DNA of 63,883 nt, filler included, from Asterionella formosa (taxonomy: Eukaryota): NCBI GenBank assembly GCA_002256025.1. It is 12 parts of 12 records of this genome, joined end to end, with 100 filler letters (N's around TTAATTAATTAA, not from the genome) between each part and the next. Parts side by side here need not be neighbours in the genome. Positions count along the whole stretch, not along the records: positions 33,703 to 57,850 come from NKIB01002293.1; 11 more parts are not named here. One strand, given 5' to 3'. Shown one piece after another: positions 1-63,857 of the stretch; the stretch's first letter is position 1; each line of letters begins with the position of its first letter. The position numbers and the translations under genes were made by a program. A model generated the notes under the pieces. That model was not told the origin of the DNA. It made no database searches and was given only the letters and a program-made list of their open reading frames with translations.

Positions 1-755
1 CAGAAGATGATAGTGGATGGTCATGTGGGCCATTTACAATTGTGAAAGTATTGGAAACTCTAATGCAACTAGAAAGGAATGGCAAAACCAAATTTCTTGG
101 CAACCGGGCACAATTCTGTTTGGAGACGGAGTCCTGGAAAGCTTTAAAACGTCAGGTGGTAGCAACAGATCGAACAGACGATTTGTTATCTGTTTGTTAT
201 CTGTTACATCTGACCCACCAACCAAGTCAACATACTTTCATCTTGGAACAGTTTGGCCTCAAGTGACAACAACAAACATTCGTGAGGATATGTTTCAGTA
301 GGAAATAATTGTTTGTATCGACAATATTTTGAGCTCCTATTTAGATTTAAAAATGTTGAACGAAGTATTTGGACGACTTCCTTGCAACTCTTCTTTCAAG
401 AAGGATGAAGTTGTCTACGTAAAATCCATGATACAACAAAGTAATGACAAACTTGCTCCCTTCAAATGGTATAATCATGCACCTATTGGCCGAATTTCTG
501 GATGCATCAAAATTGACAAAAAGTTGAAAGAAAATTTTGTTTCTGATGATAGCCCTTCTGGAATCAAATTGAAAAAGTTTACAGACTCATATCGAACTGC
601 AGTTGAAAAGTGGAGAAGAAAAATTTCGGACGAAACGAGCGAGAAGGACCATCTTAGATTTCTTTGGGAGTGAAAAAGAACAAATAATGCATGGACCATT
701 GGGATCATCCAATCTAATCATTCCTTAGGAAATTTTAGTTTGTGAAAACATTCTA
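1..755 (+). pseudogene. Degenerate transposon-associated ORF fragment: C-terminal part of a Ulp1/C48-like cysteine protease gene; paralog of 63106-63857
   Basis: Starts EDDSGWSCGPFTIVKVLE, which resembles the Q-x-D-x-x-x-CG-x-F catalytic Cys motif. The frame is broken by frameshifts, and the sequence is closely similar to 63106-63857. Confidence 0.5.
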
Positions 756-11331: not shown

Positions 11332-11539
11332 TAATGGCGCATTTCTTCATATACTTTAGACGATGCACATTTCAAAACAACCAAGTTATGACAAGATTTA
11401 ACACTTTCACAGTATGCGACACTCTACACTACGGCAATCTGTATGTCAAACCAACTGCCATATTAATTAATAGTCCATTGACATTTTTAAAATGACTCTT
11501 TTGTTTCATGATTACTACTGATCCAGTTGGTGACTACAT

Positions 11540-11698
11540 ACAACTAGAAATCTGCCGACAATGACCAGAAGTTGCTGACAACGACTAGAAGTCGCTGACA
11601 ACGTCTGGAAGTCGCTGACAACAATAAGAAGTTGCTGACAACGACTAGAATCTGCTGACAACGACTAGAAATTGCTGACTTCGACTAGAAGTTACTGA
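11540..11698. repeat. 20-bp minisatellite, ~8 units, consensus ACAACGACTAGAAGTTGCTG
   Basis: Tandem units are directly visible; the same family occurs at 46666-46757. Confidence 0.9.
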
Positions 11699-13191
11699 TT
11701 GGTGAATTCCATTAGTAAACCGTCTTCCAGTTGCTGAATACCATAACTAGTAGTAGTACGTGAACACGATTTCGATGATCAGAGCAAGACTTGGATCTAA
11801 TGATTGATAATTTAACATTATAGAAATTCACTTAAGAGAGTTTGGAATGGAAAGCCAGCTAGTAGGCATGGGATGAGTCATTGGGAGTGAGGAGTTGAAC
11901 CTGAATAAGTGTGCATAAAACATGCGCTACAGGGCCTTCCAGGTACCAGATGGCGAACAAGGTCACTCGTCGTATACTAGGTATACAACTAAAAGAGATT
12001 CAGTTCTTACTAAGAAGGTTGATAAGAGGGTTGAACAATGGGTAACAAATGAAACCTGAGCACTTGATGATGACAAATTTATAATTTACCATAATTATGA
12101 GACAGAAGCCCAGAAGGACTGTTAACATAATATAACATCATATGCTAGTTCCAAGGAATTTCGGCAAGCCTACCCAATTCAATTATTTTTGCCTATAGTT
12201 TTGAATGAATGAACCTTTTTGGTGAGTGAAAGGCTAACCGGATGTACGAACTATTGACAACATAGTGCGTTTGATGTTACAGTACCTGGTACTTGGTACT
12301 CCCACCCCCTTGTACAGTAAGATTAGAATTCAGCGAGGTCGACAAGGTGCAAACAAGTTTTCGGATAGTGTCTACGCCGATTGATGAATATTTTACCTAT
12401 CAAATCATGTTGAGTTTCTTCAAGTTACCAGGTACCAGGTAAACTACCGACCTGTGTTTGCAATTAATTCCCTCCTCCTGGTTAACAAATCCGAACCACA
12501 CTATGGACGATAGCACCTCTGAGGTCAATATATCTGCCGGGAAAGGGAAGCCCTCAAGACATTCATGCCTTCATGATGACAACCTACTTAAAGCTAAATA
12601 CAATTTGGTCCGCGCATTGAATTCTCGGAGTATTTATAAGTGTCGGCATGTACCGGTACCAGGTACCTGGTACCAGGGAATCAAAATGCGTACTGTAGTC
12701 ATTTAGGTTTCCTCATAGTAAAGCTTGATAAATTTCAGATAGAGCAGGTACCATGTGGAGTACTTATGCCAGGGTACCTGTTGATACCATAAAATTAGAT
12801 CACCGATATCATTCCGGTGCATCTATGTATGCATATGATGATGACTTGCATAAATGATAATTACATATGCCCCTAGCAACGAAGAAGCCAAACGGGATTT
12901 GAAAAGTGTGACCTCCTGACCAATTGAACGGTAACATGTACCTGAATAATCAAATCGTTTCTCACTTTGCTTGTTGCACACAAATCGCCAGCTTCTAGAA
13001 GGAAAGAAAGCAAGGAGTCATCAAACCGTACTTAAACCATACTCAGATTATTTCCCAGTCTCGATTCTCCCTTTCAACTTTATTGTCGACGCTGACTTCG
13101 CGACATTGTGAAAGTAACGAGGGACGACTCTTGGCTGGCTCGATACTAAAGGTCCAGCAATTCAAACGAGCCATTATTCTGATTCACGGAA

Positions 13192-20590: not shown

Positions 20591-21881
<1,291 letters not shown>

Positions 21882-22884: not shown

Positions 22885-24876
<1,992 letters not shown>

Positions 24877-28988: not shown

Positions 28989-29160
28989 CCACTCCATATC
29001 CGATTCCAGGAACAACCCCCGGGCCCACGCCCTATCCAATACCGGGACAGACCCCCGGGCCCACTCCGTATCCGATTCCAGGAACAATCCCCGGGCCCAC
29101 GCCCTATCCAATTCCGGGACAGACCCCCGGGCCCACTCCTTACCCAATTCCAGGACAAAC
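28989..29160 (+). repeat. 36-bp coding tandem repeat, ~5 units
   Basis: Units of cccactcc.tatccgattccaggaacaacccccggg alternate in T/Q variants. Confidence 0.9.
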
Positions 29161-30460
29161 AACTAGACCTACGCCACCAACATCTTCGGCACCTACACAA
29201 AGGCCAACTCCTGCTCCGATTCCAGGACAAACACCAGGACCGACACCATCCCCGTCCACTGCACCTACATTGGGGCCAACTTCTGCCCCAATTCCCGGAC
29301 AAACATCTGGCCCGATACTATCCCCATTCTCGGCACCTACAAAAGGGCCCACTCTATCCCCAAATCCAAGACAAACACCTGAACCAACTCTTGTCACGAC
29401 AGTAGGACCTACATCTGACTACACTGTAGCCCCAACGCAGATTCCAAGTAGTGCCCCAATTGTATTAGCTCCACCACAAGTGACTACAATCATGCCCAGC
29501 GCGATACCAAGTATTCAAACCGATCAACCTACTTTAACACCAAATCAAGGTCCGAGTATTGGGCCGACCTACGACCCGACAATTCATCCCACAGTAGCAA
29601 CCGACTTGAACCCATCAGCAACGCCAATAATGGAGCCAAGTTCAGCTCCTACTTCTGCACCCAGCAATGAACCCAGCCTAAGTCTACGCACTATGACTGG
29701 TGTTGTCCATGCTGACGTTGACAACAACGGGAGTGGTGATGTTCCATTGGCAGGAGTTGTTGTGGTTCTAGTTTCTGAGAATGGCACTGTTGTTGAAAGC
29801 ACCAGCACCGACTCAGACGGGAAGTTCATTTTCAAGGATGTTGTACCTGGCAAGTACACAATTATTGAGAAGAATCTTCCAGGCTACACTGATGTGAGCC
29901 CAAATGTGATCTCTGTTGATGTTTCTACAGGTGATGCAACTGGTTTGGAGTTTGTTGATGAGCTCCCTTCTTCTGCTCCAAGTGTGAGCAGTTCACCAAG
30001 CAACATGCTTCCGAAAACCATTTCTGGTGTTGTCTTTGAAGACATTGACAATGACAACAAGAAGGATAATCCTTTGGTCGGCGTTGTTCTTGTGCTCATT
30101 GACAAGGACGGAAATATCGTTGCCAACACAACTACGGACTCGAATGGGTTATTTGTGTTTGAGGGCGTTCCTCCCGGAAAGTATACTTTGGTGGAACAGA
30201 ATCCTGATGGGTACATTGATGTGACTCCAAATGTCATCAACGTTGACACCAGTAAGAGTGATATTACTGATTTGGAGATAATCGATGAGCCTTTGCGTAC
30301 AGTTAGTGGCATTGTTCTCGAGGACACTGACAACAATGATAGTGGCGATGAGCCATTGGTTGGTGTTGTATTGTTACTCCTTGATGATAATGGCAAAGTG
30401 GTGGCCAATACAACTACTGACTCGAATGGCGTGTTTACTTTCGAGAACATCGCTCCTGGA
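28989..30460 (+). CDS. Internal fragment of a large extracellular Pro/Thr-rich protein with SdrD-B/Cna-B-like repeats
   Basis: The frame is open across the whole contig. It has 12-aa repeats PTPYPIPG(T/Q)TPG and mucin-like PT/PS runs, then three repeats of SGxVxxDxDNN...PLxGVVxxL...TxTDSxGxFxF.xxxPGxY. Confidence 0.85.
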
Positions 30461-31160: not shown

Positions 31161-31681
31161 TACCTGTATAATTCAAGAGTCCTGGGAGGATTGCTGCCCC
31201 CCCCCCCCCCCAGTACATTTTTTTCGTCGTGACACCTAACTCCCAATAATTTTCTAGACATAGACAAAGTAACGTTCTGTAATTCTGTTTTTTTCTCGTT
31301 GGCACTGCTATATAAATATTTAGCTACGATTTTTCGATTACTTTGTACATATAAAACACTAGATTACGAAGGTAGTGGTTGTGAGCAGCTCGAGAATCCT
31401 GCATCATGTTGTCGCAACCTTGACCATGACAAAATACGAATTATCTCCCCGAAAATTGAGAACAACGCTTTGCCGCTTGCAACATACACACAACATAGAA
31501 AATACAATGGTGAAAGAAGTAAAGTAATAACACTAATAATGACATCGAAAATTAAGATCGCCAATAGCAACATGAAGTCGCATTTTCTTGCGAGATGAAG
31601 AACTCTCTCATTTTTCACCGGACGGACCTAGTTGCCGTATTAATAAGGTTTGAGGGGGCCAGGACACTGTATTATACGGTA
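31161..31681. mobile_element. Non-autonomous TIR element (MITE family A, Tc1/mariner-pogo-like ends)
   Basis: Ends are TA-CC(T)GTATAATTCA..GTCC..C-run and G-run..GGACACTGTATTATACGG-TA. The body is homologous to 34233-34907. Confidence 0.7.
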
Positions 31682-33702: not shown

Positions 33703-33952
33703 TATTAAATGCAAAATTAAATCCATACGAAGGCCTACGTATCCTAATATAGTAGCCATACCGGTTTACTCTACTAGTGTTTTTATGTATATAAAAGAAT
33801 CGCATTTTTAGCTAAATAATTGTGTACCAGCGCCTACGAGGGCCAGCAGAATTAACGCACGTTAATTTGTCCATGTCTAGAAAATTATTGGGTGTTTGGT
33901 ATCACCTCGAGAAAAATGTACAGGGGGGTCCGGGACACTGAAGTCTATGATA
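33703..33952 (-). mobile_element. Partial inverted copy of MITE family A
   Basis: The reverse complement matches the left end of 34233-34430 (C-run, gtacattttt, aataattttctagacat). Confidence 0.7.
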
Positions 33953-34232: not shown

Positions 34233-34907
34233 TACCATATAACTCATTGTCCCAATCCCCCCCCCCCCATGTACATTTTTTCGAGGTGGCACCAAAAAAC
34301 AAACACTCAATAATTTTCTAGACATAGACAAGAAAGTAACGTGCTATAATTCTGTTGGTCCTCGTAGACACCACTGGTATATAATTATTTATCTTTGATG
34401 TTGTGATTCCTTTGTACATATTAAACACTAGAGTAGACAGGTAGCTACTGGTAGTGGTTGTAGTAACAAGCAGCCGGAGAATCCTGCATCATGTTGTCGC
34501 AACCTTGACCATGACGAAAATAAAATTATCTCCGCGAAAATTGAGAACAATGATTTGCTACTTGCTTTGTATATTAGCTAAGCATAACATAGAAAATAGA
34601 ATCGGCAAAGAAGTAAAGCAATAACACTAATAATGACAACGAAAATTGAGATTGCCGATAGCAACAATATGAAATTGCGTTTTTCTTGCAACCTGAAGGA
34701 CTTCGTTATTTTTTACTCAATGGAGAAAATGATCATATCAATGTTTATTTGAAAAATGCGTGCCATCCTGGAGAATCGATAAAGTTTACGTATGTCTATT
34801 ATAAAGGAAATCTCTTCATTTTCCTGACCCATCCCTTAAGTAAAATCAGTCAAATTCAGTCACATCAGGATACATTGGGGGGGGGCAGGACAATGAATTA
34901 TACGGTA
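34233..34907. mobile_element. MITE family A, full copy
   Basis: TIRs are taccatataactcattgtcc..C-run and G-run..ggacaatgaattatacggta. Internal sequence is homologous to 31161-31681. Confidence 0.75.
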
Positions 34908-35902
34908 TGTTTTTTTACATACAAGTGTAGAAGTATGAACGCACTCTATGTGTTGTGCATGGCTATATATGCACATGTACCCTGAATACTAACTATCTCA
35001 TAAGAAGTGCACTGGACTAACGGTACCGGTATTGCCCTTAGAAATCCATCAATTTTTAGCGGCACATACATACCGGTATTCTTATTATTACCGGTATGAT
35101 GATGTCAAGAAATCAAGAAGAGCGACGAGGAGACACATACCGGTAGTATGCATTCCACCATTGAAATTTCATCTACACTAGACTACCGGTACCTGGTACC
35201 GGTAGTATGGGCTGCATCTTGGGATGCTTTGACGACAAGTGGTAGCCTACTGCGCATTCAAGTTGGCAAAGCAACTGCCAGTCCAAGTAACATTCTGGAC
35301 ACACAGAAATTTACATACTATATAATAAGGTGAGTACCCCGGGTATCTACCGGTATGCTTGTCTTGGAACCGAATTTAAACGTGTACTGGCCGGCGGGGA
35401 TAAGAAGAGTAGAAAAAATCATGTCGTTGTGTAATGACGTACCGGTTATAAAATGCCAGCAGGAAAATACCGGCAGGCTACCGGTGTTGATAAACCCTCC
35501 GTCGGCGTACCGGTACCTGGTACTAACTGGTATAGGATTACCTGGTACCATAATCTTCATCTACATTTTTGGAAGACTATTTATTACCGGTTTATTCACC
35601 AGGTAGGAATGCCGATATGGGTGTGTACGTTTATACGAATACTTTTTTGACACGCACGCATTGGATTGGCGAACAGAAGTGTATACATATGTATTGACTT
35701 CATCCACTCCAGAGTATTACCAGGTACCCTGGTACCTTCTTGCGAGTATACAGGCATCTACGGGACCGTATATGAAATCGGGTATGGCACTGAAAACGAG
35801 CTGTCCTTCACACAAATCTTCACAGTTAAAAATCAATGGAACATACCGGCATCGTCTTTAATACAGTGTTACTTTTATTGCACTCTCAACTTCCCGCACA
35901 CC

Positions 35903-36942: not shown

Positions 36943-38978
36943 TGGGATTTCGTTGGACTAGGTGGCAAGAACAAACTCGTTTTGTGGAAACAATAGTACA
37001 GGCATGGACTGGGCGTAGCAATGCTGAACTTTTGATGCTTCTGAATCCTGGTTGGTCGACCCCTACTAGTCAGGGAGTGTGCCAAAGTTTGCCCACTCAG
37101 CACCTATGCGGGCTTGTCAAATGGCAGAGCATGCACGGGTCGAAATATATCTAGAATTTAGATGCAATATTGTCAGTTCCTCTTAAAATAAATCTGTTTT
37201 CCCTATAGCCAATCATCAATTTGCAAAAAGCCTACACTGCTTGTCAGGTATTATTTTAGGCAAAAATGTCCCAAATGCTGCATTGCTTTGACTTGGAGGA
37301 TCATTTGCATGCAGGAGGAGAATCATGAATCAATTTGTTCATTGATTGATATTTGTGCAAGTTTTATTAATTGCGAAAGTTATTAAAAGTAAAAACCCTT
37401 GCAAAATTAAGGCAACAGTGATGTTTGCAAGGAAATAAATGTCGCTATAAATATTTTTCACCCTCCCTGATACCTTACATGATGCCTACTAGTTGAACAA
37501 TTCAATATTCATTTTGTAAGGTTAGGTGCATGTACTATTTTTTTGAATCCTGACAGGGGTATGATCATATTACTAGATGGATTGTTTTCTCAGTATTCAT
37601 GTATAGAAACCACATGTCTCCACTTTCTCCTTTAATAAATTATTATTGTGTCGCACATTGATGTATTTTGTTTGTCACCCAACCTTCGTACCGGTATTCG
37701 CTGATAGGAATATCACACCAGTATCTTGCAAAATGATGCGTAGCAATTTTACTGTACCGATTTCACTTAGCTAACTGGTGAGCGATGAAGATGGTTTCCT
37801 TTGTGACGCTTTTTCATCATCAGTTACTACACTGTCAATATTGCTTGCCCTCGTCTTAATATCCAATTTACAGTTGCATGCAGTTCCCACAATAGTTATT
37901 ACCCAAATAGGCACTTATAAAATTCTCTTGTTTGCCAGAAAAATGTACAAACGAACTGCCAAAAAGGTTTCACACACAGTTCATTCAGTCTTGTTCTCAA
38001 CTTCAACTTTCGGTTTTCGGGTTCATCTGTAGTACCCAAGCGGGTTTTTGGTGTTCAAGTGCTCGTCATCAGGAGTGTGCAAACTCTGCCAATATAATCT
38101 TCTCCCCTTTTGCACTATACTCCAAGGTAATATTCCTAGGCATTTGTAATAACTTTCGTGTCAATGTGCATAGACTATGTTAGTACGCATTCTGTCGTAC
38201 ATACATAACACATGCATGATAAAAGCACTCGTGATACTACATTTAGTTGCATTAGTAACCTCCAGCAAGCTTGGGTGCGTGCTTTTCCCGGTGGTTTTGA
38301 CCAAACCATTTGTCCAAAAAAATCAATTAGATTACTAGATCGTAGGATGATGCTAAATAATCCAATTGGTACTTTTTTGCATTCATGTGGTCAGGGCTGA
38401 ACAAACAATTAGCTAGTTGCATGTACGTGCTAATAGCTACGTTCAGTCGTCCTTTGACGTTTCTGTGAATTTTCTGAAAATTTAGACATAAACATTGTGG
38501 CAGCACTTCTGGTATCCCTCATTGCATTCCAGAATATTAGCCAGCCATGCGCTGTGTGGTATGGAGTTAAGTGGTTCAGTGAATTTGATGGTCAGTGCAT
38601 GCCTATGATTACATACGCTAAGTGGTGTGTGTGCATATAATGGTATATATTACTAAGAATAGAGGGAACGGCTTATTGGGCAAGCACAGCATATTGTCTT
38701 TGAGCTGAGAAATTTGTGTTGTTTGATTGCTGGATTTGATTCCTTCACTCATTGCTGTTTTCCATAGTGCCACCACCAAGAAGACACCTTTCTTGCAAGG
38801 TGGTCGGGGACTCTCCTCTGCCAACACAGTAGGGAAACAAAAGTCGTGTTGGCAGGTATCAAAATGAACACTTGCCTAGAAATAGGGTAGTACAAATGAG
38901 TATATGGTAGGTACATTTAGCTAGCTAGATGCACTTCGATATAATACTTTTCTACACTATATATGAAATATAGCGGTA

Positions 38979-39345
38979 GTAGTCTTTAACTAAGTCTATA
39001 TTTATATTCTATATGGGCAACATAAGATGATATTGCGAGCGAGCCTTCTTATTTTGTAGAAGTAAAAGTCTAGGCAGAGTTGAAGTGGCGGCACATATTT
39101 AGTCTACCTTGCTGCTGGTTTTCCAAAACATATGTATGGAACTGATGGTATCTGGTAATAGTACTAGTCTTAAACTAGTCTATATATATATTCTATATGT
39201 GCAACATAAGATGATATTGCGAGCGAGTCTTCTTATTTTGTAGAAATAAAAGTCTAGGCAGAGTTGAAGTGGCGGCACATATATAGTCTACCTTGCTGGT
39301 TTTCCAAAACATATGAATGGAACTAATGGTACTAGCTAGTATCTG
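38979..39345. repeat. Two-copy ~185-bp tandem duplication
   Basis: The segment tagtct...caacataagatgatattgcgagcgag...gttttccaaaacatatg...tggta is repeated. Confidence 0.9.
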
Positions 39346-40986: not shown

Positions 40987-41710
40987 TTACTGCGTTTTGT
41001 GGTGCATGAATAGAAGGAGCCATTGAAAGAAGGAGAATCGTGCATAGTCGACATTCGTTTATCTTATATTCCCATACTTGCAAACAAATGATAAATCTAG
41101 TCATGGTGGGGTAGAGTTCTGTGTCTCCTGCACTTTAAATATACACTGGGTTTCGTTTTGACCGTTCTAAGGAATACATACCGGTAGGGATATTGCCTTC
41201 CCAACTATCGTAATCATGTTTGCCTTTTCGTAGTGAAGCACTTGTGCTTAGTATTGCGGTTACCAGGGGGGGGGGTACAACGTTTGACAATACCGTCCTC
41301 AGGCAACATACAGAACCGGTACTGTAGCAGCCTGCAGGTATATCTACGTAACGATACCTGGTACCAGTACACCCAAAAGCAACGATGTTCATCCGGGAGG
41401 TACCTGGTACAAGTACCTGGTCAGTACGGGAAACTCCTTACTTCCTCGCCATGTAGAAAATTCCTTTATGTGTATCGTGTACAGACCTTGTTTTTTTATC
41501 ATCGAAATATCATGCGAAATTCTAGTCGCGCGTACTTCTGAGAAGTTCGCGTATCGGTACTTCTTGAAAGGTACGCGCGACCATCATTTCGTCAAAGCGA
41601 ATTTGAGCTCTGATGTGGCATTAAACATCAAGGGGCAATATGAACACCTCTTGCAGTACACGGCAAGATAACATATTTACCTGGTAGTATCACACTGATA
41701 GAGTTCGAAC

Positions 41711-45287: not shown

Positions 45288-46665
45288 TGGATGACGAGTT
45301 CACAAACCTTGCATTCGATGGAATGAATGAGAATCCCGAGATAAAAATATGTGATTCTCAACTTTCATTCACTTGTTAATATTCTTTTTCCCGGAATGAT
45401 ATACCCGCAGCGTACAACATCGGTACATACCTGGTCTGTGTTATAAGCACATGAAGCATCGTCGAATCATGTCGAGGCACGACACATCTCACAGGATGCA
45501 CATCACGGTGACGTCGAAAGCAAGAAACGCCACGTGTCAACAAATGCTTTCTCGTTCTTACCATATGTATGTATACCAGCGAATGTATTGTTGCAGAAAT
45601 TCTACCAAGGTGCCTGGCTCAATATAAGAGGATCCTAGTTGCTATGATGTCCTATAGTTATCAAACAGTAAAAATATGTAGTCTAGCCCTTGGTATAGAA
45701 ACAAATAATGGTATATATCAATTGTAAAGTATGTTTGGAAGTGCACAGCCACTTTGAGCCTGGACAATGGAGGAGTTCATTGGGTCTCACCACTGGAGCA
45801 ACAAGAACTGGCATCGGTCTCTCACCATTATATCAAAAAAGGGTGTGCTCATGATATCATTTCGATACATGTAGCATTTCATATCGGTGTACTAGTACTA
45901 CATTCCTGTTGGCACTCACATGTATGATGTATAAAGGGGCTACCACCCATTACTACATTCCTATAGGGCATTACCAGTAGCTTTGACAGCATATTTCACA
46001 CATTTGTCGGCTTCCACCACTAGCTATGCAAATTGCCAATTTGCTATCAATCAATCCTCAGCGGAAAAATAACTTAATTCACATCTTTTGCTCTGAGTAT
46101 TCATGTTATTGTTGTAGTTGTTGCCTTTTTTGTTGTGTAGCTACTGTGAAAGAGTCAAAGCTGCTCGTAACATCATCATCACTTGAAATTTTGTGCGTCT
46201 CTAATTACATGGAAAAATATGCCATCAGCTACTTCAATTTCGTTGTCAATATTAGTGTTACTAGGATTATGTCGAGATTGATATATGTACCAAATAGGGA
46301 ATCGTCATTTGCGATTTTTGTGGAGATGTTCGGCGCTATTTTCATCATGGTCAACACTTAGACGACATCATGAGGATGAGCGAAGGATTCTCCAGGAAGG
46401 TCTGGTAGCGCACGTTCTATCCGCACCTTTCAGTTTCGACGCACTCCCAATAGATCATCTCATGCCTGCCGGACAAGATATGCCGGCTTTCCATGAAAAT
46501 TATATTCCTTAAGTAATTTAGGAAAACGTTGCTCTCATTACCCGATGACGATTTGATTGCAAAATCAGGCGCTGAATACGGCTCAGATTTGCTGACTGAT
46601 GAACGTTTTTCAACAAACCGTCTTCTAGCTTCGGAATCAACATAGGAATCCTACCTTTCTATATT

Positions 46666-46757
46666 TAGAACTTCCTGACAATGACTAGGATTTGCTGACA
46701 ATCACTAGAAAAACTGCTGACTATGACTAGAATTTGCTGAAAACGACTAGAACTTGC
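46666..46757. repeat. Second array of the 20-bp minisatellite, ~4-5 units
   Basis: Units of the form gctgacaa.gactagaa, as at 11540. Confidence 0.8.
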
Positions 46758-47822
46758 AAATGAGAATAGATTTTCTGAATGACCCTTATTCCTATGAAGT
46801 ATATACATGAACAAGCACAACCACTACCCCCTGGTAACCTTGCTAATACTACAGATACTAAGCATATGTAATGTCATATCTATTTACCCCCGGTACATGG
46901 TCACAGTCATTATCATTCCAGATGCAATAACCAACCGGGGTAGCGCTACATATACTACCTCATTTGCAATATAATACATATCATCATCTATCACATATAT
47001 AAAAGTTCTTATGTTTTGTAGCCCATTCGTACGTACTCCCCTATTTCTAGGCAAGTCTGTCATTGTGCTACTACCTGCCAACAAGACCTGTGCTTCCCTA
47101 GTTTTGATAGCATTGGTGAGTCCCCAGCCACCTTTTGTGAAAGGTGATCGTCTTAGCCGCAGTGTTACTAGGGGAACTCCGACCGCCTAGGAAGGCGGCA
47201 CAAGCTGCTTGTAGGGGGGACAAGCCACTATTTCTTGCACACCAGGCAAGACCGTGCGGAATGGTAAGGAGTGTGGGAGTCGAATCCAACAAAAATTTGT
47301 AAAAAAAATTGCGTGAATCAAAGGCAACATACTCAATCGACTGAGCCATTCCCTTAAGTATTCGTTGTTAATCTTTGTGTTATTTTAATAATTCTTTGCG
47401 ATTAAACTGTCCAGGTTGTGCTTGGTAGGGATTCTGATGGACAGATTCTTGGGCTTTGAGTATGCAAAAATGGGTTTGAAATTTGCAAGTTCCACCATCC
47501 ATGTAGAAGTGCTGATACTGTTGGCTTTAGCATACTGTTCCCGTGAACCTCAACGTTGAGAAAATATGTTATAACAAACTTCATACGTTCTGTTCTCAAT
47601 GGCATGATAGCTATGGTTGAATTGATTGACCAAAAAAATCCAGCACCTCAAGCTGTTATCCTGACCTCACCTGTGTTGGTTGACATACATGAAAATGTCA
47701 GTATTTATTTGTATTACTGGTAATTAATTAAATAATGGAGGTTGAATGCAGGTTTAAACTGTTGGTAGCTGCAGTACAGTGTACTCCGAGGAACTCATAC
47801 TCCGAGTAATTCGCCGGCCAAG

Positions 47823-48375
47823 TATGGCTGGATGCATCATGAAACTACATTGGGAAGCCATAGTAGCTACCGGTACAAAATAATTCTCGCAACCAGTACA
47901 ACATAATTTTAGCTTAAGTAAAATGTTCTATATAAATAATATACATATGTATAAAGTTTATTTACACGTGTATCTGCGATCTTGTTGTTGTTATTGTTGC
48001 ATTTTTGATGACGAACATGAAATCGAAGTCCATTGCGCAGCGATGGGTATGAAATCGTTGTTCTATCTTCATTGTAACTACTATATGACCTTATAAGAGA
48101 CATTCCTGTACAGTTTAATCCAGCTTGCCCACTATCAAGCTCAAGAGTGTGAAACCATTGGTCATGTAGGCGTAGATCTCTGTGCCCAACAAAAAATAGT
48201 TCATAAAAAAAGCAAATTGTGTGGAGGAAAGAAAGCCATTTGAAGCGGTATGGGAGGATTTTCTATTGTTGAGTAAAGCAACAGTATAATAACAACATGG
48301 TGGATGTGATTATTACACGAAAATCCAGGCGCAGAATATTATATACCATAGGTTTAGGGTTTAGGCTAATTCTGA
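47823..48375 (-). mobile_element. MITE family B, inverted and partial copy
   Basis: The reverse complement aligns to 53560-54183 and begins TATGGCTGGATGCAT. Confidence 0.8.
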
Positions 48376-48441
48376 CACCTGCTATGAATACCGGTATGTA
48401 CCGGTAGCACTGCTGATTAGAATAAAAATTTCTATAGTAAC

Positions 48442-48531
48442 TGCAAGCTGCGGTAATTATGCTCATCTAAACATTTAGCTCTTTTTATCCTAGATTAGAT
48501 TGTCTATTTAAGCAAAATGACCGCAACTTGC
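48442..48531. repeat. Small inverted repeat (mini-MITE-like)
   Basis: gcaagctgcggtaattatgct...agcaaaatgaccgcaacttgc; the same terminus occurs at ~2557-2580. Confidence 0.55.
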
Positions 48532-49333
48532 TCTTACCAGGGTACCAGGTAGTCTACCGTACCTGGAACCACTTAGGATGATTCCGATGCGGAGACCGGT
48601 AGTCTGCCAGTAATATAAGGAAATATTTACCGTATTCGCCCGCAATTCTTATTACGGGGTACCACAGGTCCTCCCAGGGTACCTGGTACCAGGTACCGGC
48701 GCCAGTACCGGGTATCTGGTTTTCTAGTTCAGATATCATCGAACTGACGTGGTCAAATCGAAAGAACCAAAGAGAAGCAATCCAAAAGACAACGATATAT
48801 ATCGCATTGACAATTTTATACAGGTATATACATACGCTACTATGTATGTATGGAAATATTACGTATTCATGTAGGTTTGTGAGGGAGAATCTATATACGC
48901 ACCGGTACATAAAATGCCACATATTGATTCAAATGAAAACAAGAATCGCCATCACATGATTCATTTGTTTGAAAACAAAAATCGCCATCACTTGTTTCAT
49001 TTGTTCTCAGTTGATCCTTGGAACAACCCTCCCTTAAATATTTTCAACACAAACAACAGGACCGTAGGGGGAATCCCCCAAAACCCGGCAAGCCACGAAT
49101 GCGAGCCCAACGACGATAGACTACCGGTATATCAAAATGCATATGTCGTCCACGTAGACATACATAGAACCGCGACAAGAGCAAGCGTCGGCAGCAATGC
49201 ATACCGATGTATCAATTATTTGGCCTACCTACCGGTATGTAGTTTTCAAACTGTTCATAAAATTAATTCTCATTAAGAAATACCGGTACATCAAGTTACC
49301 AGGTAAAGCCTATCGTCATCGACTGACGTTTAG

Positions 49334-51091
49334 ATGATGCGTTCCTCTACATTTATCTTTCTGCTTTCTGTCTCTTTTGCAGGTGCTCAGACACAGACTT
49401 CTGAGTTCTTTAATGGAGTAGACAATGACGCCTACATCAAATGGGCAAACGCTTCGACCTACTCGAACTCTGTTTTTCTCCAGTCGACCGGCGCCACCGA
49501 TGAGGAGGAAGGAGTTGCTGTCCATTGGACGCTAGACTCCAAATTCATCCATCTTGCTGTCGCTGCCCGGGCTACTGGATGGGTTGGATTCGGCATCGCA
49601 GAGAGCGGCGGAATGCTGGGTTCCGACATTGTCCTCTTTGAAGCAGAGTCAAATGCACTCACTGACTCCTACGTCCTGGATGTGGCCGGCGCTCCAATCC
49701 CAGATGACTGCCAAAACTGGGCGCTTGTCAGTTCGCAATCAGAAGGAGGTTTCCTTATTTTTGAAGCCAAGCGTCTCAAAGATACTGGCGATCCCCAAGA
49801 CAGGCCTATTAAGGACGACAGTACGCTCGACATTTCGCCCCACAATGTGATTGCAGCTTGGGGCGATACCAACACTCTCTCGTACCATGGGTCCAATGAT
49901 CGAGTACGTAGCACCATCCGTTTTGCCGGTCAAGACGCTGGCTCTGATCTCGTCACTTTTGCACGCCAAGTTGCGTCACTGTCGGATGCCTCCTTCACTG
50001 TTAGACCTATCGACTATCCAGTCAAGGCTGTAGCAACGGAATATGCCGATTTTTGCTTTTCTTCTGCAAATCTCACCTCTCTTGGTGTACCCATTGATTC
50101 TGACTTGCACATTATTGGAGCCCAACCTGTAGTTGACTCAGGCAGTGCTAAGTACGTTCATCACTTTCTTGTAACTGCATCAGTCGTTGATAACTGTGGT
50201 GACATGTCAACCTTCAATGATGTAGCTTTTGTTTGGGCACCGGGTGAGGGACCGCTTATTTTGCCTCCAAACGTGGGAGCGCTACTTGGATCACAGGGAT
50301 TCAAGGCATTCAATGTTCAAATCCACTACAACAACCCCTCACTAGACACTGGTGTCCTGGACAGCAGTGGTGTCGAATTTTTTTACACAACTCAAAAGAG
50401 GGAGTTTGACCTTGGAGTGCTTCAGCTTGGTGACCCTTTTCTGGGACTACTTGGCGTAGAGGTGGGAAATGGTTTTTCCCAACACACATTTGACTGTTCA
50501 GGTGACTGCTCTAGTGTTTCACTCAGTGAAAATGTGACAGTTTTGAGAGAGTATTTGCATATGCATATGACGGGAAGTGCCATGTACAACGCTCAAATCC
50601 GTGATGGAAAAATCATCCACAAAGGCAGTGTTGAATTTTATGACTTTAGTCAATCTGGAATGTTTTCCGTCATTCAAGAGCCCTTTGATATTCGCCCAGG
50701 TGATAGCTTTCAGACATCCTGTTTTTACAGTGCTGGAGCAAACACTACTTTTGGATTGGGCTCTGCAGATGAAATGTGCATTGCTTATCTCTTTTACTAC
50801 CCCAGACAAGTGGTGCCAGGCAGCAATGGATTCCCCTACACGTGTGCCGTTGGTTTAGGTGGTTTTTTCCCGCAATGCGAAGAAGTACTGACAAGTCGTA
50901 GTCTTGAGAGCACCAGTCAATTTAATCGATCGTTTGGGGAATCCACGAATGCAACTTGTGACACCTCTGCCTTTGCCTCCCCAAGCATTGCACCAACAAC
51001 CGGCAAGAAAAGTACATCCGGGGCACGTTGCAAATTGGCAGACATGATGTTTTTGGCTGCCACTATTGTTGGAATCGCTGTGGCTTTTTGA
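49334..51091 (+). CDS. DOMON plus copper type II ascorbate-dependent monooxygenase (DBH/MOXD1-like), secreted and probably GPI/membrane-anchored
   Basis: Signal peptide; DOMON motif GWVGFG...GGMLGSDIV; Cu ligands HH, QIHY, HMH and EMC; hydrophobic C-terminus. Confidence 0.92.
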   Translation: MMRSSTFIFLLSVSFAGAQTQTSEFFNGVDNDAYIKWANASTYSNSVFLQSTGATDEEEGVAVHWTLDSKFIHLAVAARATGWVGFGIAESGGMLGSDIVLFEAESNALTDSYVLDVAGAPIPDDCQNWALVSSQSEGGFLIFEAKRLKDTGDPQDRPIKDDSTLDISPHNVIAAWGDTNTLSYHGSNDRVRSTIRFAGQDAGSDLVTFARQVASLSDASFTVRPIDYPVKAVATEYADFCFSSANLTSLGVPIDSDLHIIGAQPVVDSGSAKYVHHFLVTASVVDNCGDMSTFNDVAFVWAPGEGPLILPPNVGALLGSQGFKAFNVQIHYNNPSLDTGVLDSSGVEFFYTTQKREFDLGVLQLGDPFLGLLGVEVGNGFSQHTFDCSGDCSSVSLSENVTVLREYLHMHMTGSAMYNAQIRDGKIIHKGSVEFYDFSQSGMFSVIQEPFDIRPGDSFQTSCFYSAGANTTFGLGSADEMCIAYLFYYPRQVVPGSNGFPYTCAVGLGGFFPQCEEVLTSRSLESTSQFNRSFGESTNATCDTSAFASPSIAPTTGKKSTSGARCKLADMMFLAATIVGIAVAF

Positions 51092-52785: not shown

Positions 52786-53505
52786 GGCAGCATGTGGAAT
52801 ATAGTGGGACGTTGATGGACGCCATATTTTCTCATGCTTTTAAAAAGAATGAGCAATTATTTATACCAAGGTCTGGGCTTGAGTCCAAAGTCTGATGCCA
52901 CCAAGTCAGACTTCATGCACGACAAATAAACAAGGTTATTATAGTAAAGCAGTACCGGTATTAATTAATAACCTGGTTATTATATACCAAGTCAGAAGCA
53001 CTATCGGTATACCGGTACACTATTACACAGTGATGGCCATCCATATAAACCTGATCGTTGCCATTCTTACTGGAGTACCTGGTACCAGGTAGGGCAGCTA
53101 GCTATAATAATAATTGAAAGTAAATCCCATCTTCCATCAAAATCGCAAAATAATTGTCCCAATCCGTTCCTCCTGCCCCGAAGTCATCGTAAATTGCGGA
53201 GTCATAAATCAACAAGCTGAATCTCTCCTCAGCATGACAGAAGAAGGTCGCCACACCATCTCAGAGCCATAGCGAGCCATGGCAACCGTGCAAGAAACAC
53301 GACCCATACCATCCAGGCAGTCATCAATCACATAACAATCGAGAATGAACTATGAGCAATCCAAGCGATGCGTCCAATCAATGTACCACCAAGCACTTTT
53401 CATCTATTTCACAAGCGTAGAATACTTACGTATGTTACAAACAGATGTACGACGAGAACCCCGCTTAGGGTGTACAATCGTACACCAAGCATTACAATGC
53501 TGGCT

Positions 53506-54185
53506 CGTATGGCTGGATGCAATTTTTGGGGCCACTGGGTAGACCCTGTAGGCCTAGTATTAGAATAAACCCTAAACCTATGGTATATAATATTTAGTGT
53601 TTGGATTGGCATGTTCTAATAATATCCACCATGTTGTTAGTATTATTCTGTTTTTTACTCAACAACAGAACATCCTAACACAGCACTTCAAATAGCCTTC
53701 TTTCCGCCATGAGGAGTGCTACTAGTAAACACAGGAAGCGGCACAGGACAACACAATTTGGTTTATATATGAACTATTTTGTGTTGGGCATGCAGAGGAT
53801 CCACACCTACAGCATGACCAATGGTTTCACACTCTTGAGCTTGATAGTGGGCAAGCTGGAGTTGAAACTGTACATGAATGTCTCAAATAAGGTCATATAG
53901 TAGTTGCAATGAAGATACAAAAATGTATTCAAACCCATTGCTCACAATGGACTTTGATTTCATGTTCGTGATGAATGAATGCAACAACAACAACAACAAC
54001 AACAATAACAACGAGATCATGGATGCATGTGTACATAAATTTATACATATGTATGTTATTTATATAGAACATTTTACCGGTACTTCAGCTAAATATATGT
54101 TGTACTACCGGTAGTAGCCACAGTATTCAGTACCAGTAGCTACGATGGCTACCCAATGTAGTTTCATGATGCAACCAGCCATACG
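53506..54185. mobile_element. MITE family B, full copy with TIR CGTATGGCTGGATGCA
   Basis: TIRs at 53506 and 54170-54185, an extra TIR copy at ~54237-54251, and internal (CAA)n. No clear TSD. Confidence 0.75.
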
Positions 54186-54709
54186 TCTCTGTTTTAGCTA
54201 ACCAGCATGTACAACCTGTATCATGATAGTTTCATGATGCATCCAGCCATAAAACAATAAATTGAGCAGGTGTGCACAAAAGTATGTCACTGTATGTAAC
54301 GATGTCGTAGGGGAACGACGTAAGATCATTACGATGAATGATGCAGGACAAATATGTGTTCAATCCTGCTTATTTAGGAAAGCGTCAAAGATATATTCTC
54401 CTTGAAGCAGACACATAATAATGTAGACAGTTTAGACGAACAGCCACAAATACCGTTAGTAGAACAATGATCGTACTAATCATAACCAATTCATAACAGT
54501 AGGTACCTGGTACCTGGTACAATAAGTACGGGTCTACCTGGTACCGGTAGTCTACCTACTGTAGAATGTATTAATGCTGATTCTCAGAACAACACGATTA
54601 AAAGCAAAATAACGCACTGTTCGCATATATCTAATTTGTGCTTAAATTCTTATTCAGCAACTTTGCATCTCTCTTGCCTGAACGTTTCATCTTTATTGCA
54701 GCAGCTATC

Positions 54710-57850: not shown

Positions 57851-58469
57851 NNNNNNNNNNNNNNNNNNNNNNNNNNNNNNNNNNNNNNNNNNNNTTAATT
57901 AATTAANNNNNNNNNNNNNNNNNNNNNNNNNNNNNNNNNNNNNNNNNNNNTACGTAATTTAAAAGTACTATCAAATAATGTTGATTACTAATTCAACAAC
58001 CGGTATTTCACATTACATGGGAAACAAATCTCGATATGCAATCAAACAAAGCTGTTCTATCAGAATGGAATCTTCAGTCTTGAGAAGGCAGGCATTATGA
58101 GACATCTGTAAGGACATTGCAAGACGAGGAGAAGCCATTCATTCAGAAGGGGGAAATTATTCACTCTTGAACAGGCATCATTCTATGAAGTTGCAACATG
58201 AATGCATCCTCACACACTGATTTCCTTCTTGTACTTGAAATGACTTCTTCATTGACCTGCAGAGATTTTCATAATAACAGTGTGTCAGTAATGTATATGA
58301 TAGAAGTAGCAACAGCAGAAAGCAACACACAGTTCATTCCGGACCTCATTGTCCCTGCCTGTTGTCAACAACAATGCGTGAGCTGACAAGCCATACTAGC
58401 ATTTAGGTAAACAACAAGAACACACTCACCATTTAACTGTATTGCAGAGTTCTTTTATTTGAGTCGAGG

Positions 58470-58892
58470 ATTCAATTGACATTGCAGCAAACCCTTTCAT
58501 TTCAGGAGCATTCGGATGAAATACAGGATTGAGTATTGATGCTTTCTGATTCTGTGTTAATGTCATATGATAACAGGGCTCCGTAAATCATGAGTTGTTA
58601 GTGTGCCTTGGCGTGCTGTTTGTCATGCTGCCAGCTGCTGCTGTATTTATAATGAATTATTGAACAACTGGCACATAAAGATTCGCATAGTCATTCAATA
58701 ATTCATTATAAATACAACAGCAGCTGGCAGCATGACAAACAGCACGCCAAGGCACACTAGCTAACAACTCATGATTTACGGAGCCCTGTTATCATATGAC
58801 ATTAACACAGAATCAGAAAGCATCAATACTCAATCCTGGATTTCATCCGAATGCTCCTGAATTGAAAGGTTTTGCTGCAATGTCAATTGAAT
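58470..58892. repeat. Long near-perfect palindrome with ~195-bp arms and a 29-bp loop
   Basis: 58470-58664 is the reverse complement of 58694-58892 with only a few differences. Confidence 0.95.
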
Positions 58893-59266
58893 GTAGAGGA
58901 AGATCAGTGTGAGTTATCAGTAGCATTGCTCATATAGCCGTCAAAATAGCGCGGTAATCTTTCCAGAACAACTTTCATTCCGGACCTCATTGTCCCTGCC
59001 TGTTATCAACAACAATGCGTGAGCTGACAAGCCATACTAGCATTTAGATACACAACAAAAACATGTTAATCTAGCTGCTGAAGAGCCAGTAGGGGGTGAT
59101 TGGCTGTTGGCTGCATTGATTGCTTACTTTTTCATCATGCTAATTTTTGTGTGTGTGGACTCTCCTGCTGTGTGGCAAAACTTCTGGCATGGCCTGGATT
59201 CTCTCGTTGTACCACAACAACGTACTTTCTACCAGAAAAACACCGGCGCGGTCTTGCTAAATGTGA

Positions 59267-62666: not shown

Positions 62667-63857
62667 TTGATCTGGACAAGAACCCAGAAAAGGGTAATAA
62701 CAAACCGTTTACATAGTACCAAGGTGATTTTCATCCACTTCATCATTACAGTAACTATGTGCTTATTGTTTATTCCAAAAGATCAGATGAGGAGGAAAAC
62801 AACCATTTTGTGCGTTATCTTTTTGCTATAAATGATGGATTGTATCAAGTCCGTGATCCAGGAAAAGATGCAAGTGTGGATGAACATTATGATCAAGTAT
62901 TTCACCTTGCCCGTAAGTACGGCACTGCATCATCCCTGGATGCACGAAACAATTGGAATTGTTATACACCGATACAGGATATATTCCACAAGAATACCAT
63001 ACACCTGAAGAAGTTGGTTTATCGGAGTCTTTCTATACTGGCACCAAAGCATGGCACCATTGCAGATCATAATGGCCACTGAACATGATTCCATGTTATT
63101 TCAACCAGAAGATGATAGTGGATGGTCATGTGGACCATTTACAATTGTGAAAGTATTGGAAAATCTATTGCAACTAGAAAGGAATGGCAAAACCAAATTT
63201 CTTGGCAACCGGACACAATTCCGTTTGGAGACGGAGTCCTCGAAAGTTTTCAAATGTCAGGTGGTGGTAGCAACTGATCGAACAAACGATTTGTTATCTG
63301 TTACATCTGACCCACCAACCAAGTCAACATACTTTCATCTTGGAACAGTTTGTCCTCAAGTGACAACGACAAACATTCGTGAGGATATGCATGTTTCAGT
63401 TGGAAATAACGGTACTTCAATTTTGTATCGACAAAATTTTGAGCTCCTATTTAGATTTAAAAATGTCGAACGAAGTATTTGGACGACTTCCTTGCAATTC
63501 ATCTTTCAAGAACGATGATGTTGTCAACGTGAAATCCATGATCCAACAAATGAATGAAAAAGTTGCTCCCTTCAGATGGTATAACCATCTACCTCTTGGC
63601 CAAATTTCCGGATGCATCAAAATTGACAAAATTTGAAAAAGTATTTGTAACTGATGATAGCCCTTGTTCTGGAATCAAATTGAAAAAGTTAACAGACTCA
63701 TATCAAACTGCAGTTGAAAAGTGGAGAAGCAAAATTTCGGATGAAACGAGAAGGACCATCTTAGGTTCTTTTGGAGTGATAAAGAACAAATAATGGACCA
63801 TTGGGATCATCCAATTTCATCATTCCTCAGAACATTTTAGTTTGTGAAAACCTTCTA
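62667..63857 (+). pseudogene. Frameshifted Ulp1/C48-like protease-containing transposon gene; paralog of 1-755
   Basis: A candidate catalytic triad is in the expected order across frameshifts: NHFVRY (His), RDPG (Asp), FQPEDDSGWSCGPF (Gln/Cys). Confidence 0.5.

Follow-up and report, generated by a model that had tools for sequence, protein, structure and literature searches.

The short insertions that distinguish repeat copies in the diatom Asterionella formosa probably mix two signatures. In class A, a fixed insert separates two copies of TA, as would be left by the excision of TA-targeting elements; in class B, which would be a separate process, a constant GC stands between two copies of a duplicated dinucleotide. 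Class A sites most likely represent footprints of the IS630-Tc1-mariner group, with pogo/Passer-like donors ending in CCG...CGG such as the element designated MITE A below, the excision step being read from sequence comparison. The indels, the enrichment of their motifs, the fixed inserts, the polarity of six events and the matching element ends were established directly. New here are a located candidate donor with matching ends, polarity from three repeat copies, negative results for foldback, and protein-based polarity for class B. A preliminary description had attributed all of the indels to one candidate undescribed process, which would insert adjacent bases in inverted form at TAC/TAG sites. 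The class A insert does not vary with the flank, which speaks against such a process, and class A has the form of mariner-type excision; a link to transposon excision was among the options listed there. The term "undescribed" thus fails for class A and stands as a possibility for class B.

The window, that is, the whole stretch of 63,883 nucleotides that was analyzed (assembly GCA_002256025.1), is eukaryotic and consists of 14 gap-free pieces, 11 of its joins being N-TTAATTAATTAA-N linkers. It codes for a triosephosphate isomerase-GAPDH fusion, a V-ATPase E subunit, and Gypsy and Copia fragments, the fusion being indicative of a stramenopile and in keeping with a diatom. The fusion gene (23090-24876, + strand) lies about 1.5 kb from a second, unfused GAPDH (20591-21560, - strand), which is transcribed divergently and shares 79% DNA identity with it. 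A secreted-looking protein with DOMON and copper type II monooxygenase domains in a MOXD1-like architecture is encoded at 49334-51091 (+ strand), and a proline/threonine-rich repeat protein followed by two repeated beta-sandwich-like units at 28989-30460 (+ strand). A related 20-base unit forms two arrays on separate scaffolds (11533-11718 and 46572-46780), and 21 C8 runs were counted (0.5 expected). For word counts, a noncoding set of 36.5 kb and a coding set of 17 rough intervals (24.4 kb) were used, and the null consisted of 100 trinucleotide-preserving shuffles of the noncoding sequence. Paralog indels came from 13 alignments with 75 gap rows, some of them redundant. Contigs from 4 of the 24 listed runs, which were mostly freshwater metagenomes among those carrying window sequence, were also aligned to the window; repeat copies dominated the resulting rows.

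All five of the differences claimed in the preliminary description are present in the diatom DNA. They are listed here with the copies of MITE B, the repeat in which two of them lie.

54075..54082 (no strand): case 1, class A scar TA-CCGG-TA; TACCGGTA gained in the 53.5-kb MITE B copy
54103..54116 (no strand): case 2, TACTACCGGTAGTA; class A scar at 54106-54113 inside TAC..GTA
39330..39341 (no strand): case 3, TA-CTAG-CTAG-TA, compound; 10-base gap in a tandem duplicate 94.5% identical
58758..58763 (no strand): case 4, class B scar TA-GC-TA; 4-base gap at 58757 in one arm of a long inverted repeat
34442..34453 (no strand): case 5, TA-GC-TA followed by CTGG-TA; 10- to 11-base gap at 34440
53510..54181 (+ strand): MITE B host copy bounded by TA, with ends TGGCTGG...CCAGCCA that do not match the scars
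47822..48373 (- strand): second MITE B copy, lacking one end; the sites of cases 1 and 2 have an empty TA
161-820 of metagenome contig L002: third MITE B copy

The third MITE B copy was one of two loci recovered in a metagenome scan; the other (L001) was dropped, as it gave no BLAST match to the window. At the case 1 site, the inverted copy (47916 ff.) has a plain TA instead of TACCGGTA, and L002 likewise lacks the insert. At the case 2 site, both other copies read TACTGGT. The case 2 insert is real, but it starts at 54103, one base from the reported position of 54104, and the comparison with L002 resolves the supposed new 14-base palindrome into a 6-base gain plus one substitution. L002 has a gain of its own, TA to TA-CCAGG-TA (7 bases), which is absent from both window copies. 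By unrooted parsimony, three class A gains are thus polarized, each found in one of the three MITE B copies. Together with the three class B gains described below, these make six polarized events. The preliminary description was correct in proposing recurrent gains at TA-containing sites. The scar predicted for MITE B itself, TATGCATA, was not enriched in the window (3 versus 1.6 in shuffled sequence). MITE B can alternatively be read as having GG...CC ends with an AT duplication, and its right end is found once more at 54228-54252.

Cases 1 and 2, and probably part of case 5, belong to class A, and class B comprises case 4, parts of cases 3 and 5, and the further cases described below. Cases 3 and 5 are compound. 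Case 3, a comparison of two copies that leaves it unpolarized, could be TA-CTAG-TA plus a class B event or a copy of GGTACTAGTA about 10 bases downstream. Case 4 likewise stands unpolarized between two arms that are 97.9% identical. It lies in a nested structure (58333-59063), located midway in a 1.5-kb scaffold, in which a 90-base direct repeat (96%) encloses a 195-base inverted repeat (98%). For case 5, the gap exists as described and is palindromic only in part; its sequence suggests a class B scar joined to a class A scar altered by CpG decay. The insert is missing from a loose-end consensus of other copies, whose agreement was only 0.62 to 0.64, and the alignment of a third MITE A copy ends at this site and so gives no polarity there.

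Word counts showed that the class A motifs are strongly over-represented. In the noncoding set, TACCGGTA was found 36 times (shuffle mean, 1.4; maximum, 5) and the 7-base form TACC(A/T)GGTA 29 times (shuffle mean, 0.6; maximum, 4), whereas the rough coding intervals hold 0 of 36 TACCGGTA and 1 of 30 TACC(A/T)GGTA. Intact class A units number about 1.8 per kb of noncoding DNA, and TACCGGTA is the most over-represented 8-mer of the window. Comparison with shuffled controls was among the checks proposed in the preliminary description; TACCGGTA, TACC(A/T)GGTA and the class B word TAGCTA exceeded them, while no general excess of palindromes was seen (3,612 4-base palindromes versus 3,624 expected). 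The insert is tied to TA, which forms the flanking pair in 36 of 37 noncoding NN-CCGG-NN words and in 29 of 31 NN-CC(A/T)GG-NN words. At isolated (nonabutting) units, C stands beside TA in 12 of 27 cases (background, 41.5%; P = 0.45), so that the proposed TAC/TAG sites reduce to TA; A was under-represented at this position (4 of 54 half-flanks versus 24.6%; P = 0.001). Other spacers support the same form: TA-spacer-TA words with C..G ends numbered 162 (68.0 in shuffles), TA-CCCGG-TA (CCG plus GG) 5 (0.5) and the CCAGGG spacer 3 (0.2), while TA-GGCC-TA occurred once (0.4). TA-CC(A)-G(n)-TA variants, in which n ranges from 3 to 10, occur at 41261, 46825, 25138, 46885 and 35335. The full-overlap footprint TACCGTA/TACGGTA was not enriched in the window (9 versus 7.4), which counts against the footprint reading.

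Decayed versions of TACCGGTA with one mismatch were also in excess (55 versus about 9), the CpG form ranking first with 13, and one MITE B copy has TACCAGTA where another reads TACCGGTA. This excess indicates that the class A process is old as well as recurrent. Of 65 noncoding class A units, 51 have an ORF start no more than 1.2 kb downstream, compared to 37% of TA sites; this count uses rough gene models, in which a later-found DnaJ exon shifts one start in a region without units. By the same rough models, TAGCTA showed no upstream bias (6 of 29). Among the rows listed from the contig alignments (12 of 306 indel rows and 32 of 7,139 piece rows), none fell at a class A site. Six-base gaps at about 49.1 to 49.7 kb in contigs of runs X8 and X17 were rejected as motif polymorphism; they overlap in coding DNA.

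A search for element ends yielded a candidate donor for class A.

34235..34905 (+ strand): MITE A, full copy, TA-CCATATAAC...ATTATACGG-TA, 671 bases; candidate donor of TA-CCGG-TA
31163..31679 (+ strand): MITE A, second full-ended copy, TA-CCTGTATAAT...ATTATACGG-TA, 517 bases
33751..33950 (- strand): MITE A, third copy, partial, left end decayed

The two full copies are noncoding and have terminal inverted repeats CC(G/A/T)...CGG with a TA duplication. When motif arrays and the inverted MITE B pair are disregarded, they score higher than any other pair among 269 candidate ends. CC and GG of these ends match the 6-base scar and the CCCGG form; two MITE A left ends begin with CCA and CCT and may be decayed CCG. 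Summed contig depth on MITE A in run X5 reached 13,026, a value that is not a copy number, versus about 18 for single-copy contigs. The first 11 bases of the right end of the 31.7-kb copy are identical to a Passer end of Phytophthora cambivora in supplement 3 of PMC7386202, where 10 of the first 15 of 49 stramenopile rows, all of them oomycete Passer, begin with CCG. According to passages of PMC8533490, Sailor ends also often start with CC; CCG ends alone thus do not fix the family of MITE A. Judged by its element ends only, MITE A would be a Passer/pogo MITE and is a likely donor. Two observations count against the footprint reading. None of 97 stop-to-stop frames of at least 75 amino acids outside the known ORFs of the window matched a DDE family, and for each of the three MITE A copies in the window there are more than 20 scars (36 intact ones and a surplus of about 46 decayed ones in total). 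When viral contigs were scanned with MITE A or array patterns, 0, 0, 7 and 0 loci were recovered, the 7 being without motif excess, and scans of prokaryote genomes gave 0 and 2 loci, again without motif excess. A further high-copy repeat is located at 38778-38907 (- strand) and 47020-47500. Its 38.9-kb copy starts with TA-CCATATAC, which resembles the left end of MITE A, and this repeat may be a second CC-ended family. A Stowaway-like end for the element at 47032 was rejected, as homology continues upstream.

In the mechanism that we propose for class A, insertion of an element would duplicate TA, and excision would cut a few bases inside each end, so that CC(G) stays on both flanks. End joining would then yield TA-CCGG-TA, either by pairing of CCG overhangs via CG or by filling in of two-base overhangs. 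The palindromic form of the scar would follow from the inverted-repeat ends of the element and the self-complementarity of TA; no foldback is needed. If elements return repeatedly to accessible upstream regions of genes, where the TA of an older scar can also be hit, arrays could build up, and CpG decay would convert scars to TACTGGTA or TACCAGTA. CCG ends by themselves cannot account for the 7-base form, which requires an additional A/T; it might derive from a sister family with CCA/CCT ends or from a nontemplated A added at a blunt end.

Arrays of such units were found, for example:

35184..35204 (no strand): array of abutting 6- and 7-base units with shared TA (6-7-6)

Comparable arrays lie at 12651, 15563, 31716, 42016, 48680, 53076, 54504, 54535 and 60744. 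Abutting pairs comprised 9 mixed 6/7, 5 of 7/7 and 0 of 6/6, where re-insertion simulations expect 1.2, 0.5 and 0.6, respectively. Slippage alone was rejected as the origin of the arrays, since 9 of the 14 abutting pairs are mixed and none is 6/6. A CCA-adding or independent-end model was also rejected, as CCATGG occurred 0 times, with about 6 expected from the other counts. The 7-base form adjoins CC/GG in 23 of 29 cases, versus 329 of 2,743 background TA sites, and clustering exceeds that of the intergenic block (29 of 50 units within 100 bases; null, 14.4). Both of these results count against the footprint reading.

For class B, the paralog alignments gave a uniform picture: in the 13 alignments, all five 4-base gaps have the form NN to NN-GC-NN, with NN being TA, AT, AT, GA and TT. 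Three of them were polarized with protein relatives.

63387..63392 (no strand): class B scar AT-GC-AT, frame shift in a repeated broken ORF; a gain, since P0002 (cluster of 176) is uninterrupted without it
637..642 (no strand): class B scar GA-GC-GA, a perfect 4-base tandem duplication; a gain, since P0001 is uninterrupted without it
687..692 (no strand): class B scar AT-GC-AT; a gain, since P0001 is uninterrupted without it

The broken ORF is present in two copies (1-755 and 62667-63857) and accounts for three class B gains over some 750 bases. Its relatives P0001 and P0002 (176 members) suggest, on sequence grounds, that it is a multicopy mobile gene; neither P0001 nor P0002 matched a Pfam family, and P0002 had no Atlas look-alike. 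TAGCTA occurs 29 times in noncoding DNA (shuffle mean, 7.9; maximum, 14), and GC was the sole standout among 10 core classes. With tandem duplications removed, the GC core was found 25 times between TA pairs (7.2 in shuffles), 27 times between AT pairs (17.6) and 97 times between the remaining pairs (67.5). Direct NN-GC-NN words were raised overall (240 versus 153.5). Two contig indel rows, which were not counted, are compatible with this picture: 4 bases are left out in each, at 52917 (AT-GC-AC, one mismatch off class B) and at 47028 (TA-CG-TA, also a tandem duplication). Several nontandem 3-base paralog gaps read TA-G-TA, CA-G-CA, TT-G-TT and AA-G-AA, and TA-(C/G)-TA is in excess (132 versus 96.7 shuffled); these NN-G-NN gaps are possibly a one-ended form of class B.

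In mechanistic terms, the class B process would duplicate two bases around GC, with a preference for TA but no restriction to it. The likeliest reading of class B, though a tentative one to which we give slightly less than an even chance, is that a second element, which ends in G...C and duplicates 2 bases, left it as a footprint. Two of the five gaps are also perfect tandem duplications, and non-TA NN-GC-NN words are mildly raised in coding DNA too (56 versus 40.5), both of which count against an element footprint. No class B donor was found in the window by end searches, which were built on TA flanks. MITE B, if read as GG...CC with an AT duplication, has TATA targets, which differ from the class B sites.

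The alternative to be weighed first is that at least one of the two signatures arises without a resident element, either by TACCGGTA copying itself into nearby TA breaks or by end joining that adds GC at 2-base staggered breaks. We regard this as rather unlikely. Its more specific form, in which local templated end joining of the SD-MMEJ type multiplies the motif with no element inserting, is distinctly improbable, even though several observations are in its favor. Units are more clustered than local density predicts (49 of 66 have another unit no more than 60 bases away; null mean, 17.9), the 7-base form prefers the TACC context, and TACCGG pre-exists in MITE B as a template 18 to 55 bases from each of the three polarized gains, a finding that also counts against the footprint reading. 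Possible templates with 6-base matches exist for case 2 and for the L002 gain, and the possible source for case 3 is only 10 bases away. Passages of PMC5728401 place SD-MMEJ templates within about 30 bases; the best match for case 1 within that distance is 4 bases. Templated copying is further opposed by the lack of a TAC priming bias and by the flanks of neighboring units, which are not shared (mean of 1.25 bases for 12 near pairs versus 1.21 for 321 far pairs). Moreover, 9 of 27 isolated units lie more than 100 bases from any intact unit, the boundaries run exactly from TA to TA every time, and an element with matching ends is present.

The foldback, template-switch or hairpin-opening (P-nucleotide) process at TAC/TAG favored in the preliminary description is very unlikely. 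Class B offers some support for it: G follows the duplicated pair in all five 4-base gaps (chance, 0.36 each), changes such as ATG to ATG-CAT-G and TAG to TAG-CTA-G are readable as foldback, and the gaps are also compatible with 3 duplicated bases and one complementary base, XYG-C-XYG being raised (26 versus 13.6). However, the corresponding complementary-base pattern is not in excess after A, C or T (33 versus 28.8, 12 versus 11.2 and 28 versus 25.9), the TAGCTA excess lies mostly outside the G context (18 versus 5.4), and the inverted form NN-GC-rc(NN) is flat (164 versus 160.8). For class A, foldback could not produce CCGG at TTT-TA-CTT (case 1), and complementarity between the flanks of the 36 TACCGGTA sites was not in excess at any of positions 1 to 6 (8, 6, 9, 10, 9 and 8 versus permutation expectations of 10.6, 8.8, 9.7, 8.7, 9.1 and 10.0).

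It is equally hard to believe that TACCGGTA is a selected transcription factor site at which the indels are incidental. The units are strongly biased to regions upstream of genes, passages of PMC3597505 rate TACCGGTA (M94) and TACATGTA (M93) as high-confidence promoter motifs, and passages of PMC3520976 set aside a Tc1 footprint as the origin of TACATGTA. Against this, a whole motif was gained in one step inside a MITE with an exact TA duplication, and motifs decay by ordinary substitution. Selection could nevertheless keep some scars once they have formed. An assembly or library artifact is scarcely credible, for although 54061-54118 is spanned by no independent contig among those listed, the units recur elsewhere in contigs without gaps that come from two other studies (five units at 48389-48687 in an X7 contig and three of these in an X8 contig), which partly bears out the presence of the motifs in independent libraries, the unrelated metagenome contig L002 has a gain of its own, coding DNA is spared, and motif decay is graded.

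If the footprint reading is true, visits by transposons that have since left are a leading cause of small insertions in the regulatory DNA of this diatom, such visits can be counted and dated from sequence alone, and motif searches would misread scars as transcription factor sites. If an element-free reading is true, the commonest promoter word of this diatom is the product of an insertion process that is stereotyped and specific to the lineage, and the oomycete "promoter motifs" TACCGGTA and TACATGTA could have the same origin. Class B, for its part, disrupts reading frames in repeats.

No account of such scars in diatoms was found in the literature searched, with most subscription journals lying outside it, and passages of the supplements of PMC7386202 and PMC8533490 hold no diatom elements under six genus names. 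Passages of PMC4561436 assign flank-derived palindromes to hAT hairpin excision and retained ends between duplicated TA to mariner-type excision. Like the hAT (Ac/Ds) hairpin footprints and P nucleotides treated there, the present sites have short palindromes at a presumed excision site; hAT palindromes, however, are flank derived and vary with the site, whereas class A is fixed, and class B may partly fit. Templated end joining, as described in passages of PMC2943611 and PMC5728401, similarly produces short insertions that form direct or inverted repeats, and case 3 fits this form; the site-specific inserts and local-repeat priming that it predicts are absent at isolated TACCGGTA sites.

Closer parallels are provided by Tc1/mariner elements, whose footprints consist of the first or last 2 to 4 bases of the element between TA pairs, as in the Sleeping Beauty footprints TACAGTA/TACTGTA (both according to passages of PMC6943129). 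The Caenorhabditis elegans Tc1 footprint is TACATGTA (cited in passages of PMC3520976), and Stowaway re-insertion at the TA of an older footprint is described in passages of PMC1925063. Class A resembles such footprints in that TA is duplicated around 2 to 5 fixed bases with C first and G last; it differs in its density of about 1.8 intact units per kb of noncoding DNA and in having a 7-base form tied to TACC, and its excision would be deduced from sequence. Fish Passer leaves footprints of 0 to 4 bases and prefers the surroundings of transcription starts (passages of PMC9976928). With Passer (DD35D, pogo superfamily), the diatom sites share the TA duplication, footprints of up to 4 bases and the bias to promoter regions, and MITE A has ends CCGTATAAT as in oomycetes. 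Unlike Passer, MITE A is noncoding, and the window frames lack a DDE match. Finally, the Phytophthora motifs M93 and M94, described in passages of PMC3597505 and PMC3520976, offer the same palindromic 8-mer, abundant upstream of genes in a second group of stramenopiles with CCG-ended Passer; M93 TACATGTA and M94 TACCGGTA were interpreted there as transcription factor sites, unlike the reading of excision footprints that we propose for the diatom.
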